Source: Escherichia coli (lineage in GTDB: Bacteria > Pseudomonadota > Gammaproteobacteria > Enterobacterales > Enterobacteriaceae). From it: a stretch of DNA of 64,000 nucleotides. Under the pieces are notes generated by a model. It was not told the DNA's origin and did not search any database. It saw only the letters and a list, made by a program, of their open reading frames with translations. The stretch is from the NCBI RefSeq assembly GCF_003018115.1, contig NZ_CP027457.1; one strand, given 5' to 3'. The position numbers and the translations under genes were made by a program. Below are positions 25,291-57,136 of this stretch, in pieces (the stretch's first letter is position 1; each line of letters starts with the position of its first letter).

Positions 25291-25468
25291 TGGTGGTGAG
25301 GGAAGGATTACTCAGCGCTGCGCGCTTCGCCCTTCGGGTCGTTGCCAGCGGCAACGCTCTCTCGCTGGCGCTCAAGTCGAACCTTGGTCGAAGCTTCTCA
25401 TCCTTCCCCGCTTGGGCAGAATATTTAATTACGGATTCGTTGGGAAGTTCAGGGACTTTTGAAAGTGA
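25291..25468 (-). repeat. 178-bp tyrT-operon distal repeat unit
   Basis: begins exactly 178 bp downstream of the tyrV 3' end with a degenerate copy of the tRNA 3' 19 nt (tggtggtgagggaaggatt). Confidence 0.55.
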
Positions 25469-25553
<85 letters not shown>

Positions 25554-25587
25554 AGGGGTAATTCAAATTTTGAGGTAATGCTTGAGG

Positions 25588-25672
<85 letters not shown>

Positions 25673-49865: not shown

Positions 49866-50519
49866 ATGAAAAAGTTAACAGTGGCGGCTTTGGCAGTAAC
49901 AACTCTTCTCTCTGGCAGTGCCTATGCGCATGAAGCAGGCGAATTTTTTATGCGTGCAGGTTCTGCAACCGTACGTCCAACAGAAGGTGCTGGTGGTACG
50001 TTAGGAAGTCTGGGTGGATTCAGCGTGACCAATAACACTCAACTGGGCCTGACGTTTACTTATATGGCGACCGACAACATTGGTGTGGAATTACTGGCAG
50101 CGACGCCGTTCCGCCATAAAATCGGCACCCGGGCGACCGGCGATATTGCAACCGTTCATCATCTGCCGCCAACACTGATGGCGCAGTGGTATTTTGGTGA
50201 TGCCAGCAGCAAATTCCGTCCTTATGTTGGGGCAGGTATTAACTACACCACCTTCTTTGATAATGGATTTAACGATCATGGCAAAGAGGCGGGGCTTTCC
50301 GATCTCAGTCTGAAAGATTCCTGGGGAGCTGCCGGGCAGGTGGGGGTTGATTATCTGATTAACCGTGACTGGTTGGTTAACATGTCAGTGTGGTACATGG
50401 ATATCGATACCACGGCTAAGTATAAATCTGATGGTCGTAAACTGGCTAAAGGCAGTTATAGCGACAATGTACGCCTTGATCCGTGGGTGTTTATGTTCTC
50501 TGCAGGGTACCGTTTTTAA
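49866..50519 (+). CDS. ompW: outer membrane protein W
   Basis: 217-aa ORF with signal peptide MKKLTVAALAVTTLLSGSAYA and C-terminal aromatic beta-barrel signature (SAGYRF). Confidence 0.93.
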   Translation: MKKLTVAALAVTTLLSGSAYAHEAGEFFMRAGSATVRPTEGAGGTLGSLGGFSVTNNTQLGLTFTYMATDNIGVELLAATPFRHKIGTRATGDIATVHHLPPTLMAQWYFGDASSKFRPYVGAGINYTTFFDNGFNDHGKEAGLSDLSLKDSWGAAGQVGVDYLINRDWLVNMSVWYMDIDTTAKYKSDGRKLAKGSYSDNVRLDPWVFMFSAGYRF

Positions 50520-50564: not shown

Positions 50565-51695
50565 TCAAATGACCAGTTTTTTCCATTCCTTACCGCGTGC
50601 GTCGTTGTAAATATCGGTCATTTTTTGATTCGAATGGCCCAGCAAAATTTTGGTATCAATTCCCTGTTCTCTGAACAATCGTTCTGATAAAGATCTCTGC
50701 TCATGGAAAGAGGGTGGGGTGCCATTAGCACGCCAGTTGTAATCCACAGAATCCCGGGCTTTTTTAAATGCAACGGTTAACGTTGCTGGCTTAACCATCC
50801 CGCCGCGCTTAGCTGTCCCTTTAGCATGATGGTGGTGCAATAGCCACGGACTAAGAACGCAATCGCGACAGGATGACACCACATCATCCAGGGTGAGATT
50901 TAATTTATCGCAACGCAGAGCCAGAGGGATGGCAATCCGGGTTCCTGTTTTTTGCTGTTCGACATGAAGATAACCATCCCTGATATCCGAAAATTTCATT
51001 TTGCAAATATCTGAAAGGCGCTGGCCTGTCATCAGTGCCAGCAGCATACCACGCTGTAAAAAGTAACCATCCTTTTCCGCTGCATTATAAATCATCATCC
51101 ACTCATCAAAGGTCAGTCGTTGCCGTGATATCCGTACCTGTGGTTTTTTTGCCGATTCTGCAGGGTTAAAGCCTGGCGGGACATCGCCCGTTTGCTGGGC
51201 CTCCCGGAAAACATCAATCAGTACTTTCCTGAAAATTTGTCCCATTCTGTTATGTCCTTTTGCCTTGTAATCTTCCAGCACCGATACCACATCTTTTACG
51301 GTTATGGCATCTAAAGGTCTGGTACCAAAACGTTCATCAAATACCCTGAGAGGGGATGCTTTCTGTTTCAGTGTGTTGAGTTTGATCTCTCCGTTTTCAT
51401 ATCTTTCCTGTTGAATTTTTCGGTAACTATTCAGAAAAACCGAAACGGTTGATGAACCACCGGTATCACGAATAATTTTCTCCTGCAGAGTGAGCATTTG
51501 TTCCATTTGTTGCCTGGCAAGACGGCTGTTCGCTTCTGCTGCAATAGCTTCTGCCTGTTTCTGGTCAATACTGCCGAGCCCGTGATTTTTTCCTGTTATG
51601 GGATGCCTGTAACGCCAGTAAACTTTGTTATTTCTTTTGTCAAAATACGGAGATAATCCCGGAACTTCAGTTTTATATTTTCGTGGGCGCGCCAT
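50565..51695 (-). CDS. int: phage integrase (tyrosine recombinase, lambda Int-like)
   Basis: 376-aa ORF; N-terminal arm-binding-like region, C-terminal catalytic region with R...HxxR...Y pattern (HEQRSLSERL...LGHSNQKMTDIY). Confidence 0.9.
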   Translation of the reverse strand: MARPRKYKTEVPGLSPYFDKRNNKVYWRYRHPITGKNHGLGSIDQKQAEAIAAEANSRLARQQMEQMLTLQEKIIRDTGGSSTVSVFLNSYRKIQQERYENGEIKLNTLKQKASPLRVFDERFGTRPLDAITVKDVVSVLEDYKAKGHNRMGQIFRKVLIDVFREAQQTGDVPPGFNPAESAKKPQVRISRQRLTFDEWMMIYNAAEKDGYFLQRGMLLALMTGQRLSDICKMKFSDIRDGYLHVEQQKTGTRIAIPLALRCDKLNLTLDDVVSSCRDCVLSPWLLHHHHAKGTAKRGGMVKPATLTVAFKKARDSVDYNWRANGTPPSFHEQRSLSERLFREQGIDTKILLGHSNQKMTDIYNDARGKEWKKLVI

Positions 51696-51921
51696 CTTCC
51701 AGTATCCTCTTCAAAGCAGGGTGATCTGTGGCGATCACTTCCGGCTTGTTTACCATTCCGACAAAGCGAGCTCGAGGATCCACTCGCCAGTGTCTTCCAA
51801 CTTTTTTGGGGAGAGGAAATATCATTCCGGCTTTAGCGTATTTACTTAACGTGCCCGGAGTCGGGACCGGGTCACTGAATTCCTCTTTTGCCCACTCAGT
51901 GAGAAGAATAAGTCTTGCCAT
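51673..51921 (-). CDS. xis: excisionase (Xis-like)
   Basis: 82-aa ORF overlapping int start by 23 nt; lambda-Xis-like winged helix (EWAKEE...IFPLPKKVGRHWRV). Confidence 0.8.
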   Translation of the reverse strand: MARLILLTEWAKEEFSDPVPTPGTLSKYAKAGMIFPLPKKVGRHWRVDPRARFVGMVNKPEVIATDHPALKRILEDGAPTKI

Positions 51922-51985: not shown

Positions 51986-54457
51986 TTAAAAATCAGCCTG
52001 ACTCGGGATCAGTTTTTGCCAGATGGCTGAAACGTATTTTGCCTGGTAACGCGCATCGTGCAGCGCGTTATGGCGTTCACCTTCGAATGGAATAGTCGTT
52101 CTTGCGTCGAAATCCATCACCAGTCCCAGAGCAACCATCGTTCTTACATCGCGATCATTGGTGTAACGCCACGGGCAGGGGATCCCCTGCCGTTCATATG
52201 AACGGCGTAAAATCACGTTGTCGAAAGTTGCACCGTTACCCCAGACCTGAACAAAAAATTCACCGGAGTTTTCGTCGATAAATTCCCGGAATTGCAGCAG
52301 TGCATCATCCAACGGGATTTCATCGGTCAGAATGGCGGATTGTGCTTCGCGTGACTGTTTCAGCCACCACTTAATGGTGCCCCGATCGATGACCCCGCCT
52401 GCGGTTTCCAGATCGATAGTTTTGCTGAATTCTGGCCCCATCTCTCCGGTTGCCGGATCAAAAAACTTACCGGCTATAGCGTTTATTGGCGCATCAGGAT
52501 TTTTTCCCATTGTTTCAAGGTCAATCATCAGATGGTGCCACAACCTGCTGGTGGATGTGATTTCATGATGACCGTTCACTTTAATTAAGGGATTTGCTGT
52601 CTCGCCAGTTTTATTATCGCTGGCGTGATACTGATCGCTGATAGTGTTCTCCTTGTGCAGATGTTCAGTGCCTTCCATTTCCTCCGGATCATTTTCCTGA
52701 GCTTCAGCCTGATTCTCTTCATCGAATGTTTCCTGGTAGGTTGCGTTCCCCATCACCGCACCACAGTCAGGACAGTTGCCGCCACCGGTCTGACCGCATG
52801 CGGTGCAAACTTTTTCCGGTTCTTGTTGCACTTCTGGTTCAGGCAGTTTCGTTTCTGGCTCGTTTTGTAACGCATTTGGACTGTTTTGTTCCGCTTTCTG
52901 GTCGTTTTGTTCCGATTCGGGCTGGTTCTGGTTCACAGAATCGCGGGTTTCAATCCCCTTAACCCATTTCGGATCATTCGGGTCGCTAATCCCTTCAACA
53001 AATTCACCACGTGATGCAGCAAGCAATTTATCGGTGTCAGGCTGGCTGATATTGGCTGCCTGCATAATTTTGTTTACTTCGTCAGCGGTAACTTTTACCG
53101 GCTCTGGTTGTTCTGAATCTTCTGCGGTATCTGTATTTTGCTGTAAGCCCGTATATGTGCCATTTTTTCGGGCAAAATATTCTTCTTTTGAGATTTCGGT
53201 ACCACCGGCAGCCAGCGCCTTGTCCAGGCCAGAAAGTTTGTTTGCCCTGCCGTATTTTTCCCCGTCCTTATCGGTAAAGACGAAATAAAACGGTCCTTCA
53301 CGCTCTACAGATGGTTCAGCTTCCACCAGGATTTCATTTTTTTGAGAATTGGATTCCGCCGTCTCCACTGGATCAGTTTGTGCTGCTGACGACAGGATAG
53401 CATCAGCAGAGCTCTGGTCTGTTTCTTCATGTTCAAACACGCCCTTTGTCGTCAGGTATTCGCTGATGTATTTGTTCAGTGCAACGGGATCTTTGTGAAT
53501 GTCGATCGGGCGCTCACGAACAAGGCCAAAAATAGTCTGACGGTCATAGCGAAGCGCATCAGGCTGTTTGCGCATTGATGCAGAGATACGCTTCCAGTCT
53601 TCGCGATCCTTGTCGATAACCTCATTTTTAGCCCAGCGATGGATGGTACCGTCAATGTTTCCGGCATCAATATCACCAGGCCAGAGAGCGTAAGCCAGCT
53701 CTTCATCCAGGGTTTTCCATGTCTGCTTGTATTCGCGACGAATGGCAGTAGTGACAGGGTTGATTTTTGCTGCTGAGTTTTCAGTGTGCTGTTGGTTGAC
53801 TCTGGCGCGGGCCAGCTCAACAACAGAAGTATGTTTCCCGGTTTCTTTTCGTTCTGCTTCGCGACGTTTTTTCCAGGTGCGCATCTCTGCCTGAATTTCT
53901 GGCCATTTGGCACCAGGCTTACATTTATGCTTAACCCACCCGATGGCATACAGCTTAAGCTCCGGATACATGGCGTTAACTTCTGGCATTTTCATCAAAG
54001 CTTCCACGATATGTCCGTCGAAGGTTGCCATGTCTTCCTGCAACAATTCCTGTGCGCTAATCACCATATCAACGGTGATGTTTTCACATGTATCGAACTT
54101 AACCATGACAGCGTTCTGTACTTCAGGGGCCAGCTTGTCAAAAGTGACGTTCATCGGATCTGATTCAGGTTCGACCGGGACAAAGGAAGCAGACGCCTCA
54201 TCCCAGCGGTTTTCCAGCATATATTCAGCATCCCAGGAGTCGAGGGCTGGGCGGGGTGTACCGGGTTTATCCTCACAGACAAGAAATTTATAAGCGCAGT
54301 CCTGAGCAGCCGGATAATGTTCAAGGAATTGCCAGTGAAATTTTGCGCGGGCGCGACGTTCATCACCGGCTTCAATGGCTGTGGCCACAGCAACAGCGCC
54401 CTCGTTTTTTATTGCCTGTTCGTCAGGAATGGCGGCGCAAATAAATATTTTACTCAT
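51986..54457 (-). CDS. large phage protein with C-terminal DEDDh (DnaQ-like) 3'-5' exonuclease domain and CxxC-x10-CxxC zinc ribbon
   Basis: 823-aa ORF; Exo I MIDLETMG, Exo II NGATFDNVIL, Exo III HNALHDARY at C-terminus; central acidic low-complexity region; CTACGQTGGGNCPDCG. Confidence 0.8.
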   Translation of the reverse strand: MSKIFICAAIPDEQAIKNEGAVAVATAIEAGDERRARAKFHWQFLEHYPAAQDCAYKFLVCEDKPGTPRPALDSWDAEYMLENRWDEASASFVPVEPESDPMNVTFDKLAPEVQNAVMVKFDTCENITVDMVISAQELLQEDMATFDGHIVEALMKMPEVNAMYPELKLYAIGWVKHKCKPGAKWPEIQAEMRTWKKRREAERKETGKHTSVVELARARVNQQHTENSAAKINPVTTAIRREYKQTWKTLDEELAYALWPGDIDAGNIDGTIHRWAKNEVIDKDREDWKRISASMRKQPDALRYDRQTIFGLVRERPIDIHKDPVALNKYISEYLTTKGVFEHEETDQSSADAILSSAAQTDPVETAESNSQKNEILVEAEPSVEREGPFYFVFTDKDGEKYGRANKLSGLDKALAAGGTEISKEEYFARKNGTYTGLQQNTDTAEDSEQPEPVKVTADEVNKIMQAANISQPDTDKLLAASRGEFVEGISDPNDPKWVKGIETRDSVNQNQPESEQNDQKAEQNSPNALQNEPETKLPEPEVQQEPEKVCTACGQTGGGNCPDCGAVMGNATYQETFDEENQAEAQENDPEEMEGTEHLHKENTISDQYHASDNKTGETANPLIKVNGHHEITSTSRLWHHLMIDLETMGKNPDAPINAIAGKFFDPATGEMGPEFSKTIDLETAGGVIDRGTIKWWLKQSREAQSAILTDEIPLDDALLQFREFIDENSGEFFVQVWGNGATFDNVILRRSYERQGIPCPWRYTNDRDVRTMVALGLVMDFDARTTIPFEGERHNALHDARYQAKYVSAIWQKLIPSQADF

Positions 54458-54552
54458 TGTGTTTAAACCTCATTACAGATTTCAGGGTGAACGAATCCCT
54501 GCCATTGCTGGCATTTTTAATCCGTTGGTATGGCGTTAATATGGCTGGCGGG

Positions 54553-54741
54553 TTATCCAGCCGGTATTTCGTTATTCAGGTACAGCGATACTTTGTTTAA
54601 CGGGAGACATTCACCGGAAATTTTTTGCTCGTCTCTTGCCTGATGGCAGGATTCTTTACTGGCATAAATTCCGGTAATCACTTTCTGTGGCTCACCTGTT
54701 ATCAGAAAAACCGTCATCATCAGTGTAAACGCTGAACTCAC
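54553..54741 (-). CDS. hypothetical small protein with N-terminal signal-like hydrophobic segment
   Basis: 62-aa ORF MSSAFTLMMTVFLITG...; start overlaps upstream ORF stop (ATGA). Confidence 0.45.
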   Translation of the reverse strand: MSSAFTLMMTVFLITGEPQKVITGIYASKESCHQARDEQKISGECLPLNKVSLYLNNEIPAG

Positions 54742-54926
54742 TGCTGCCCTCCGAAAATGCCAAGTTCAAGAAGGGCAATTCTGGAGAGTATGGAATTATC
54801 ATTGAGAAGATAAGGCTCATATTTTCTCATCCTGATGGCGTCCTCAGTAAACTCCCGGTTACTGAGCAGAATACCAATATTAAAACACCCTTCAGACGTA
54901 TTAACGTTTGGTAGTGACGTTTCCAT
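54738..54926 (-). CDS. hypothetical small phage protein
   Basis: 62-aa ORF translationally coupled to 54553..54741. Confidence 0.4.
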   Translation of the reverse strand: METSLPNVNTSEGCFNIGILLSNREFTEDAIRMRKYEPYLLNDNSILSRIALLELGIFGGQQ

Positions 54927-55101
54927 TATCGCGTCCTCAACAATGAATTTTGTGATGTGGTGCCTGGTGCCTCCAGGTGACGTTAACCAGTTAACAATTA
55001 ACGCCGGATTGTTAGTTGATGTCTGTTACGCCAGTAAAAGACCGCTTGTTTTAACTGTTCCGCGTGCGCTTAGCCGCATTCACCGCATCACAAAATACAC
55101 T

Positions 55102-55131
55102 TTAAAAATGGCGGATATCCATTTCCGCCGA
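55102..55131 (-). terminator. putative leftward-strand terminator within prophage early-left region
   Basis: ggcgga..tccgcc / aaatgg..ccattt inverted repeats with adjacent A-run on plus (T-run on minus). Confidence 0.4.
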
Positions 55132-55475
55132 ATCACCAGAAAAGTGATAACAGAGGTTGTTGTGGCGGTGTTGTCACTCAGGCGCATGGTCAACCTGACA
55201 ACCCGGTGCATTTTCTGGAGCAATGGAGGAAGCCCCAGCCATACTTACCGCCGCGCCATTTCGCGGATTGCCACAACCGGAAGCGCACGATCGAATTAAA
55301 TTTAACGACAAGCCTTATATTCTCGCCGTGCGCTTTCGTGTTATGCCCTGACTTTTCAGGGATATGTTCTTTCAGCAAACTGTCAGTGCCGGATTCTTAT
55401 CCGTGTCCGGCGCACGACCACACGTGACAGCGTGTTGGTCTCCATTTTTAACCCAGAACCTCTATGGAGGATAAA

Positions 55476-55778
55476 ATGCACTCTAAATCAAATCGATATT
55501 ATGTTCATGTGCAGTTATTTGAAGCAACAATGGAACAGGAGAAAAAGTTCGAGACTCTGATGCCAAATTTTAAATACTCCAGGATGATTAATGAAGGTGA
55601 CGTTGAATATAAATTGTTGCCAGGGGCATACGTTATTCAGTCAACGCTCAATTCGAATCAAATACTTGAACAAACCTTTTCTGTTGCTAATTCAGTTGGT
55701 GTTAATGCTCACATTTTTGTTTGCCCTTATGATGAAAGTGCAACCCTTTTGCCTTGTGCTGATTTTGGCACTTACTAA
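55476..55778 (+). CDS. hypothetical AT-rich accessory (moron-like) protein
   Basis: ORF 55464..55778; second ATG at 55476 has strong SD (tggaggataaaATG); 100 aa; opposite orientation to the surrounding leftward operon. Confidence 0.55.
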   Translation: MHSKSNRYYVHVQLFEATMEQEKKFETLMPNFKYSRMINEGDVEYKLLPGAYVIQSTLNSNQILEQTFSVANSVGVNAHIFVCPYDESATLLPCADFGTY

Positions 55779-56082
55779 CTAAATTTAATTTATGTTCAAG
55801 TTCGGCTATTTGCATACGTAGTGCTTTAACCATTGTTTCATGATAAATCTCACTCACTCCACCTGGGTGTGGGGTGAATTTAGGTGAATAATCTTTGTTT
55901 TCAGAACTCAGCTTCTCTTCGTACAGCTTGATAAAGGCATTACGCACATTATGGGATATATTGTCGATGGTTTCTTTTTCTACGGTACTCAGGTCAAGAG
56001 TCGCCAGTTGAGAACGAACTATATTCGCTGCCATATCCTGGAATGGTACTGGTAAATCTTTAAATTCCATCGTCAACCTCAT
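55702..56082 (-). CDS. hypothetical phage early-left protein
   Basis: 126-aa ORF whose ATG overlaps stop of the YdaF-like gene; 3' end overlaps the convergent plus-strand ORF by 77 nt. Confidence 0.5.
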   Translation of the reverse strand: MRLTMEFKDLPVPFQDMAANIVRSQLATLDLSTVEKETIDNISHNVRNAFIKLYEEKLSSENKDYSPKFTPHPGGVSEIYHETMVKALRMQIAELEHKLNLVSKCQNQHKAKGLHFHHKGKQKCEH

Positions 56083-56237
56083 CAGTCAGTGTTTCTGGCT
56101 AACCAGCGATGCGCGCCAGCTTCAGTTTTAAACGTTTTGCTTCTGGTATACGTCATCGCGGTAAACGTGCCGTCCTGGTTAGGGAACACACCGCATACCA
56201 GAGATTCGTTGTTGCCAAGATTGAGTGTATCCATGTT
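56082..56237 (-). CDS. YdaF-like small phage protein (first gene of leftward operon)
   Basis: C-terminal 51 aa of ORF 56082..56390 (MDTLNLGNNESLVCGVFPNQDGTFTAMTYTRSKTFKTEAGAHRWLARNTD) recalled as Rac YdaF-like; the upstream part of the ORF overlaps the predicted OL/pL. Confidence 0.5.
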   Translation of the reverse strand, partial: NMDTLNLGNNESLVCGVFPNQDGTFTAMTYTRSKTFKTEAGAHRWLARNTD

Positions 56238-56349
56238 GACCTCATTTGCCCTTAACGCCGGGTAGCGGAACTGTTTGCTGAGAACACCGTGCGGTGTCTT
56301 GATGGATTGTAATTTAGTTTTCTCATGGTGCTTGGTCAAGTGTTTTTGA

Positions 56350-56363
56350 TGAGAAAACTCAAC
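56350..56363. promoter_or_regulatory. putative left operator (OL), gagaaaactcaa motif
   Basis: same 12-nt motif as in the repressor–cro intergenic operator, located just downstream of the repressor gene. Confidence 0.45.
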
Positions 56364-56423
56364 ATTTAATGCAAAACAAAGCCAATACATTGAAATGTAA
56401 GGCTTTAAATTTTGTGAAGGGGG

Positions 56424-56831
56424 TTATTGATGTTTGTTACGTTTGCGAGCTTCTAGTAGCTCGGTGAATAGGCGATTAAAATTCTCAACGCGGGCACGGA
56501 GTTCGCTGATCTGTGCTTGCTGCTCTGATTTTGGAAGTGCGCGATACAATCGCAACATCTCCGACTCATCTTCCGATAAGTCTAAGGCGCTGTTGAGTGC
56601 AACTGGTGGATCTGGTGTTTTATCCTCGTCACCAAACAGTATCCAAGTTGGTGAACATTGCAATACCTCAGCCAGGCGATGCAAATTTTGCCCGCGCGGG
56701 GCTGTATGGTCGCTTTCCCATAGTGAAATTGATGAGCCAGATACACCAGCAGCTTTGCTTAAATCGTTTTGACTTAAACCAACCTGTTTGCGTCTTTCTC
56801 TAATTCGTTGACCTAAAGTTTTCTCGTTCAT
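56424..56831 (-). CDS. DicA-like HTH (XRE family) prophage repressor
   Basis: 135-aa ORF; HTH LSQNDLSKAAGVSGSSISLWE; strong resemblance to DicA incl. VLQCSPTWILFGDEDK and C-terminal RARVENFNRLFTELLEARKR. Confidence 0.88.
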   Translation of the reverse strand: MNEKTLGQRIRERRKQVGLSQNDLSKAAGVSGSSISLWESDHTAPRGQNLHRLAEVLQCSPTWILFGDEDKTPDPPVALNSALDLSEDESEMLRLYRALPKSEQQAQISELRARVENFNRLFTELLEARKRNKHQ

Positions 56832-56849
56832 ATTTAGATATCTTAATAA

Positions 56850-56900
56850 CCCTTGACTTGAGATTCCTTGAGTGATTACTATTGAGAAAACTCAAGCCTG
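56850..56900. promoter_or_regulatory. divergent immunity promoter/operator region (OR)
   Basis: TTGACT -35-like element, cttgag repeats and palindrome ttgag-aaaa-ctcaa (56883..56896) between repressor and cro-like gene. Confidence 0.55.
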
Positions 56901-56908
56901 GAGGGGTG

Positions 56909-57136
56909 ATGTTTAAATCAGACGTAATTAATTTTTATGGGACGAAAGCCAAAGTAGCGAAAGCTGCTGGTGTTGATCCATCTGCTGTTTCTCAATGGGG
57001 GAAACTGGTCCCTGAAGGTCGCGCGATGCGCCTGCAAGAGGCATCCGGCGGGGAGCTTCAGTATGACCCCAAAGTTTATGACGAATATCGTAAGACGAAG
57101 CGGGCGGGGCGGTTGAACAATGAAAATCACCCTTGA
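56909..57136 (+). CDS. Cro/DicC-like regulator
   Basis: ORF 56882..57136, likely starting at MFKSDVINFYG; divergent from repressor; DicC-like (YGTKAKVAKAAGV...VPEGRAMRLQEASGGELQYDPKVYDEY). Confidence 0.75.
   Translation: MFKSDVINFYGTKAKVAKAAGVDPSAVSQWGKLVPEGRAMRLQEASGGELQYDPKVYDEYRKTKRAGRLNNENHP

Follow-up and report, generated by a model that had tools for sequence, protein, structure and literature searches.

The window, by which we mean the whole 64,000-nt stretch of DNA that was analysed, carries on its minus strand two overlapping small genes that lie between a repressor gene and an exonuclease gene of a prophage (Table 1). Both are real, conserved and already known: they are the dicB and ydfD pair of a Qin-like lambdoid prophage. 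They belong to the expected protein families, stand in a known gene order, are under purifying selection and share a conserved 4-nt stop/start overlap. Since the pair is already known, the finding is real but ordinary.

Prophage setting of the pair

The operon reads DicA-like repressor, ydfA, a hypothetical gene, a DicF-like element, dicB, ydfD, exonuclease, xis and int, and is followed by ompW, an order that agrees with that of the K-12 Qin prophage and of phages PPompW, Tritos and 813R8. As in K-12, the pair thus occupies a dicBF-type setting, under a DicA/DicC-like immunity region and downstream of a DicF element. Across the locus, one RefSeq chromosome is 99.9% identical to the window and has dicB, DUF1482, exonuclease, xis, int and ompW annotated at matching coordinates; the same record gives a 50-aa DUF1391 protein at the ydfA position, a 'hypothetical protein' for the gene that follows ydfA, and a Cro/CI family regulator for the product of the divergent gene. 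Sequence matching the locus was found in 4718 of 5426 complete E. coli genomes, and dicB and ydfD stand side by side in most E. coli genomes and also in phages.

Table 1. Genes and elements of the dicB-ydfD region, with their positions in the window and the evidence for each
Feature	Position	Strand	Evidence
ompW	49866..50519	+	Pfam
int (lambda-type integrase)	50565..51695		Pfam
xis (excisionase)	51673..51921		Pfam
Exonuclease, 823 aa	51986..54457	-	phrog_2082 full length; 87% identity to Tritos exonuclease
ydfD homologue (DUF1482 family), 62 aa, GTG start	54553..54741	-	Pfam PF07358 51.2 bits
Putative coupling junction: SD GGAGG(G) 54752..54747 inside dicB, then GTGA 54741..54738	54738..54752	-	Sequence
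dicB homologue, cell-division inhibition protein, 62 aa	54738..54926	-	Pfam PF05358 115.7 bits, E = 7e-34
Short DicF-like element, 39 nt	55104..55142	-	Aligned to K-12, Tritos, PPompW, 813R8
Hypothetical phage protein at the ydfB/ydfC position, between ydfA and the DicF element	55702..56070	-	phrog_6937 2.5e-30; phrog_1363
ydfA homologue (DUF1391), first gene of the operon	56082..56234	-	Pfam PF07151 99.6 bits
DicA-like (CI-type) repressor, 135 aa	56424..56831	-	55% identity to K-12 DicA; HTH_3 domain
Cro/DicC-like regulator, divergent from the repressor	56909..57136	+	Pfam P22_Cro 62.8 bits

The early-left arm, from the repressor to int, is shared with the PPompW prophages of Shiga-toxin-producing E. 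coli (e.g. LC567836) and with Tritos, mEp460 and 813R8. PPompW also has the intE/xisE-type integration module and is named for its ompW site; the prophage in the window adjoins ompW. The DicB and YdfD proteins of PPompW are 90% and 81% identical, respectively, to those of the window, and a GTGA overlap between the two genes is common to both. The likeness is not complete, however: PPompW, Tritos and 813R8 carry a canonical 53-nt DicF in place of the short form of the window, and the middle genes of the operon differ.

The initial annotation had placed the two ORFs upstream of an exonuclease gene, which is correct: the exonuclease ORF starts after a 95-nt spacer downstream of ydfD. Its K-12 counterpart, ydfE, has been interrupted by IS2 and survives as a truncated pseudogene, whereas the gene in the window is full-length. 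The sole domain match of the exonuclease, at residues 641-813, is to an Rv2179c-like 3'-5' exoribonuclease; a Pfam search assigned no domain to the ~600 N-terminal residues, and along most of its length the protein is not RecE-like (268 bits against NCBIfam exoVIII, for a cutoff of 1269).

Other features of the surroundings were also recorded. On the strand opposite the dicB operon, a 104-aa ORF (55464..55778, +) runs between the DicF element and the hypothetical gene; profile searches relate it to the YmfI phage family (109 bits in NCBIfam, for a cutoff of 140; phrog_8894 7e-34), and it is absent from the annotation of the 99.9%-identical RefSeq record. Elsewhere in the window, Rfam matches at 60495..60679 (+), 61388..61562 (+), 8560..9160 (+) and 25291..25672 (-) belong to isrK and C4 antisense RNA (a prophage antirepressor-type region), sok antitoxin RNA, two rdlD antitoxin RNAs, and RtT with two tRNA genes.

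The dicB and ydfD genes and their junction

The proximal ORF has an ATG start at 54926 and a Shine-Dalgarno (SD) sequence, GAGGA, at 54938..54934. Its Pfam match spans residues 1-62 of 62 (cutoff 27 bits), the PHROG match has a value of 2e-38, and NCBIfam NF049927 is passed marginally, with 102.2 bits against a cutoff of 100. The exact protein sequence occurs on ~1000 public contigs under the name 'cell division inhibition protein DicB', and pairwise dN/dS of dicB ranges from 0.10 to 0.45. All 16 invariant columns of the DicB family alignment are kept (L5, C14, F15, G18, S22, N23, F26-I31, K35, L40, I46 and S48). A sequence search of the PDB returned no solved relative. The AlphaFold2 model, mostly helical in its C-terminal two-thirds, is of low confidence, at pLDDT 64.4 overall and below 50 for residues 1-19.

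The window DicB is 58% identical to that of the K-12 Qin (Kim) prophage (b1575), which is likewise 62 aa long with a full-length Pfam DicB match. The 5' UTR and the SD are identical, and so is the placement of the gene: dicA/dicC, ydfA and dicF precede it, and ydfD follows. Residues 5-35 are near-identical, including L5 and the motifs PNVNTSEGCF and FTEDAI, and the divergence is mainly C-terminal: the last 28 residues have diverged strongly (dN 0.71) and represent a second allele class (…EPYLLNDNSILSRIALLELGIFGGQQ), common to the PPompW, O157:H7 and Salmonella copies. Residue 2 is E in the window and K in K-12. In K-12 DicB, the N-terminus and L5 are essential, K2 tolerates substitution and the final 8 residues are dispensable, while truncations of more than 8 residues lower activity (PMC4967827). 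K-12 DicB is a division inhibitor that depends on MinC and ZipA, and it also blocks ManYZ-dependent entry of phage DNA; this inhibition of ManYZ goes through the same DicB-MinC interaction and gives ~100-fold resistance to lambda-like phages (PMC6832061). By analogy with the K-12 allele, the window DicB would be expected to bind MinC, to reach the septum in a ZipA-dependent manner, to cause filamentation and to inhibit ManYZ.

In a broader sense DicB is comparable to other division inhibitors of prophages, such as lambda Kil and Rac KilR, which are also small early-operon proteins, repressed in the lysogen, that block assembly of the FtsZ ring; moreover, lambda Kil is reported to be ZipA-dependent too (PMC3961180). 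Lambda Kil and Rac KilR have, however, no sequence relationship to DicB, and DicB acts through MinC. Thus, of the host functions first put forward for the pair, a kil-type role suits the proximal ORF in kind, as a DicB, but membership of the Kil family is not supported, given that Pfam at E ≤ 1 returned only DicB and DUF1482. Nor does this search result support restriction alleviation, another of the suggestions. No match to the Lar/RalR, Kil or YdaC profiles was obtained in Pfam (E ≤ 1), NCBIfam, PHROGs or PADLOC, and PADLOC gave no defence-family match for either ORF.

The distal ORF encodes a member of the DUF1482 family. The Pfam match (gathering score 25, E = 1e-13) covers residues 4-61, and phrog_1092 is matched at 1.2e-31. 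The protein has the N-terminus (M)SSAFTLMMTVFLITG and two cysteines, C32 and C45, so that the hydrophobic start and cysteine pair noticed in the initial annotation are indeed present. F5, L7, G16, C32, C45 and P47, which are invariant in 15 diverse DUF1482 members, are all kept, as is the hydrophobic F/L/TV motif of the N-terminus. Pairwise dN/dS of ydfD lies between 0.20 and 0.50, and the exact protein is found on ~1000 public contigs as 'DUF1482 family protein'. The family is small (25 clusters at 50% identity among 1.84 billion representatives, in an exhaustive representative search); those members that carry a name are from Escherichia, Shigella and Klebsiella phages, and the K-12 paralogue YebW also belongs to the family. 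One cluster returned by this search, P0135 (723 aa), is repetitive and of low complexity and was dismissed as spurious. A sequence search of the PDB found no solved relative of YdfD.

YdfD of the K-12 Qin prophage (b1576), which carries the RefSeq label 'lysis protein' and is described as an IspG inhibitor, is 47% identical to the window protein and of the same length class (63 and 62 aa). Both have a hydrophobic N-terminus, two invariant cysteines, a CxP motif and a C-terminal IPAG; the C-terminal part is less acidic in the window (K+R 4 and D+E 5, against 3 and 5 in K-12). Expression of K-12 YdfD lyses cells, and this lysis is abolished by co-expressed DicB or SulA, because it requires ongoing division (PMC8835842). 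The window YdfD may, on the model of the K-12 protein, lyse cells, bind IspG and be antagonized by DicB or SulA in the same way.

The start of ydfD overlaps the stop of dicB by 4 nt, and the junction reads …GGAGGGCAGCAGTGAGTTCA…. Two 62-codon minus-strand ORFs with such an overlap had been described from the outset, and this stands, except that the tetranucleotide is GTGA and not the ATGA first reported, because ydfD starts with GTG. The same overlap is ATGA in K-12, where ydfD starts with ATG, in Tritos, in 813R8 and in the O157:H7 copy, and GTGA in PPompW. Our analysis favours the GTG at 54741 as the start, giving 62 aa, over an internal start at Met8 that would give 55 aa, because K-12 YdfD homology reaches upstream of Met8, because a GGAGG is present, and because the position of the ATG/GTG start is conserved. 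A 55-aa, Met8-start version of this exact allele (P0002) is annotated on 110 public contigs. Occasional public proteins of 92-108 aa (P0242, P0245) contain both a DicB and a DUF1482 domain and look like frameshift fusions across the 4-nt overlap.

Translational coupling of the two genes, proposed in the initial annotation, agrees with the geometry of the junction, which combines a conserved stop/start overlap with a GGAGG inside dicB, 6 nt upstream of the ydfD start. The overlap (RTGA) and an upstream GGAG/AGGA are kept in K-12, PPompW, Tritos, 813R8, O157:H7 and Klebsiella phages. Given that the GTG overlaps the dicB stop and that the SD lies within dicB, YdfD is most likely translated by ribosomes finishing dicB, and ydfD most likely coupled to it. 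We found no published experiment on dicB-ydfD coupling. A hairpin sequestering the SD was also looked for at four homologous junctions; they fold differently, and none beats shuffled controls (z = -0.63 to +0.79).

In the Klebsiella phages ST13-OXA48phi12.4 and ST16-OXA48phi5.1 (L006 and L007; 2891..3192), DicB is replaced by an unrelated ORF of 37 codons, with an internal GGAG, that overlaps the YdfD homologue by ATGA; the exonuclease comes next. Because the ATGA is kept in these phages despite the unrelated upstream gene, coupling to an upstream small ORF might be a property of ydfD itself.

The short DicF-like element

The DicF-like element consists of a 5' seed, UUUCUGGUGA, followed by a hairpin (55129..55110, predicted at -11.1 kcal/mol) and a U-run, which together resemble a terminator. 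Compared with the 53-nt DicF of K-12 it is 19 nt shorter in the interior, where UUUUACUCCGUGA is absent, and the missing part takes in the stretch that base-pairs with the ribosome-binding site of ftsZ (pairing regions from PMC5069750). The 5' seed is the one used for xylR in K-12. Rfam did not report DicF (RF00039), either in the whole window at the gathering score or in 54400-56900 at E ≤ 10. The short form is present in 441 of the 5426 complete E. coli genomes (~8%), among them O157:H7, where it lies at the corresponding position ahead of dicB and DUF1482, and the canonical form is present in 3968. A sub-threshold Rfam match to STnc100, a Salmonella sRNA family, was also seen at 54894..55111 (-), scoring 33 bits (gathering score 47, E = 8e-5); the match spans the DicF-dicB spacer and the dicB 5' UTR, which are nearly invariant relative to K-12.

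It is conceivable, though we hold it doubtful, that the entire DicF-dicB-ydfD module of the window forms an allele class of its own, each of its three parts having shifted from the studied K-12 versions. The short DicF and the DicB/YdfD allele class are not strictly linked, because PPompW has the same DicB/YdfD class together with a long DicF.

The YdfD N-terminus and the proposed mechanism

The hydrophobic N-terminus of YdfD was initially taken as signal-like. The hydrophobic run covers ~12-13 residues, at 4-15 (best 11-residue Kyte-Doolittle average 2.37), and the best 19-residue average, 1.12, falls short of the threshold commonly used for transmembrane segments. Neither the window protein nor K-12 YdfD has any Lys or Arg in residues 1-19. 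An AlphaFold2 model built with 15 diverse family members (pLDDT 80.9, core 86-93) consists of a strand at 5-12, a strand at 18-26, a helix at 29-39, a strand at 44-47 and a helix at 48-55, and the first two strands pair with each other within a small globular fold. The model thus predicts that the segment is a strand of a small globular domain and not a helix. When the model was compared with the PDB by Foldseek, no match fell below E = 1, and no fold is therefore assigned to YdfD.

One alternative is that an N-terminal transmembrane segment holds YdfD in the inner membrane and that the protein kills through a membrane-associated step of envelope synthesis, and not through IspG. A membrane-anchored YdfD was reportedly proposed by Masuda et al. 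in 2016. The family-wide conservation of the hydrophobic N-terminus, the dependence of lysis on cell division and the state of the IspG model, which comes from a single study without enzyme kinetics or structure (PMC8835842), are all compatible with such an anchor. The run of ~12-13 residues is nevertheless short of the transmembrane threshold over 19 residues and is modelled as a β-strand; moreover, purified K-12 YdfD and IspG form a complex in solution, and extra ispG or HMBPP rescues the cells (PMC8835842). We therefore regard membrane anchoring as unlikely.

Export is disfavoured more plainly, and we give little credence to a Sec-exported, periplasmic YdfD with a cleaved signal peptide and disulfide-bonded cysteines, although the h-region-like run at 4-15, a possible I-T-G|E-P cleavage motif and two family-invariant cysteines could be read as pointing to it. 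The absence of Lys and Arg from residues 1-19 means that the basic n-region of a Sec signal is missing, and AlphaFold2 makes residues 5-12 a paired strand. In addition, the K-12 homologue is reported to act on IspG, which is cytoplasmic; mutants that lack its cysteines retain IspG binding, and killing is reduced when either end is deleted (PMC8835842). According to the discussion of Lu et al., earlier work found the C-terminal domain without the hydrophobic N-terminus to be still toxic, but less so. The small exported protein suggested at first is thus better described as a YdfD homologue.

That one or both ORFs are merely untranslated chance frames in the exonuclease leader has next to no probability and is already refuted by the conservation data: although both are short (62 codons), the distal one starts with GTG and some public annotations prefer the 55-aa Met8 start, both have full-length family matches (Pfam, NCBIfam, PHROG), dN/dS of 0.10-0.50, and K-12 homologues with experimentally shown phenotypes, ydfD has a strong SD, a conserved start position and homology upstream of Met8, and both are conserved in K-12, PPompW and Tritos. 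The initial annotation had named a lack of conservation in related prophages as grounds against its own reading of the pair, and such a lack is thus not seen.

Taken together, we put at roughly 0.85 the probability that the ORFs are dicB and ydfD of the dicBF operon of a Qin-like ('PPompW'-type) prophage beside ompW and that they work as their K-12 homologues do. The steps of this mechanism are all drawn from published studies of those homologues, to which the window proteins are 58% (DicB) and 47% (YdfD) identical. DicA represses the operon in K-12, where a ydfABC-dicFB-ydfD transcript was also observed (PMC10448788). The window's DicA-like repressor would likewise hold off the operon in the lysogen, from ydfA through the DicF element and dicB to ydfD. 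Once expressed, DicB would form a complex with MinC that reaches the septal ring via ZipA, and the FtsZ ring would be dismantled, so that cells would filament. Through the same MinC interaction DicB might block ManYZ and thereby exclude lambda-like phages. YdfD, a small lysis protein, would bind IspG and block the MEP isoprenoid pathway, with the result that dividing cells lyse, and the division block imposed by DicB would counter this lysis. Ribosomes finishing dicB would start ydfD, which would tie the output of YdfD to that of DicB, and the lytic protein would thus not be made without its antagonist.

As a discovery this has little weight, since RefSeq already names and annotates both genes and there is experimental work on their K-12 homologues. 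Its use is first that the annotation of the locus is fixed, with ydfD starting at the GTG at 54741 and encoding 62 aa, not the 55-aa Met8 version, and second that the leads of an exported protein and of restriction alleviation are removed. The short DicF without the ftsZ-pairing segment and the predicted N-terminal β-strand of YdfD are flagged as modest follow-ups. If the N-terminus of YdfD is a core β-strand of a soluble mini-domain, as the model predicts, this may revise the published description of a 'hydrophobic membrane domain'. If the module is functionally rewired, DicB alone would carry division control, the targets of the sRNA would be narrower or different, and the target of YdfD might have shifted; were this true, the window would hold a naturally occurring separation-of-function variant of this classic prophage module.
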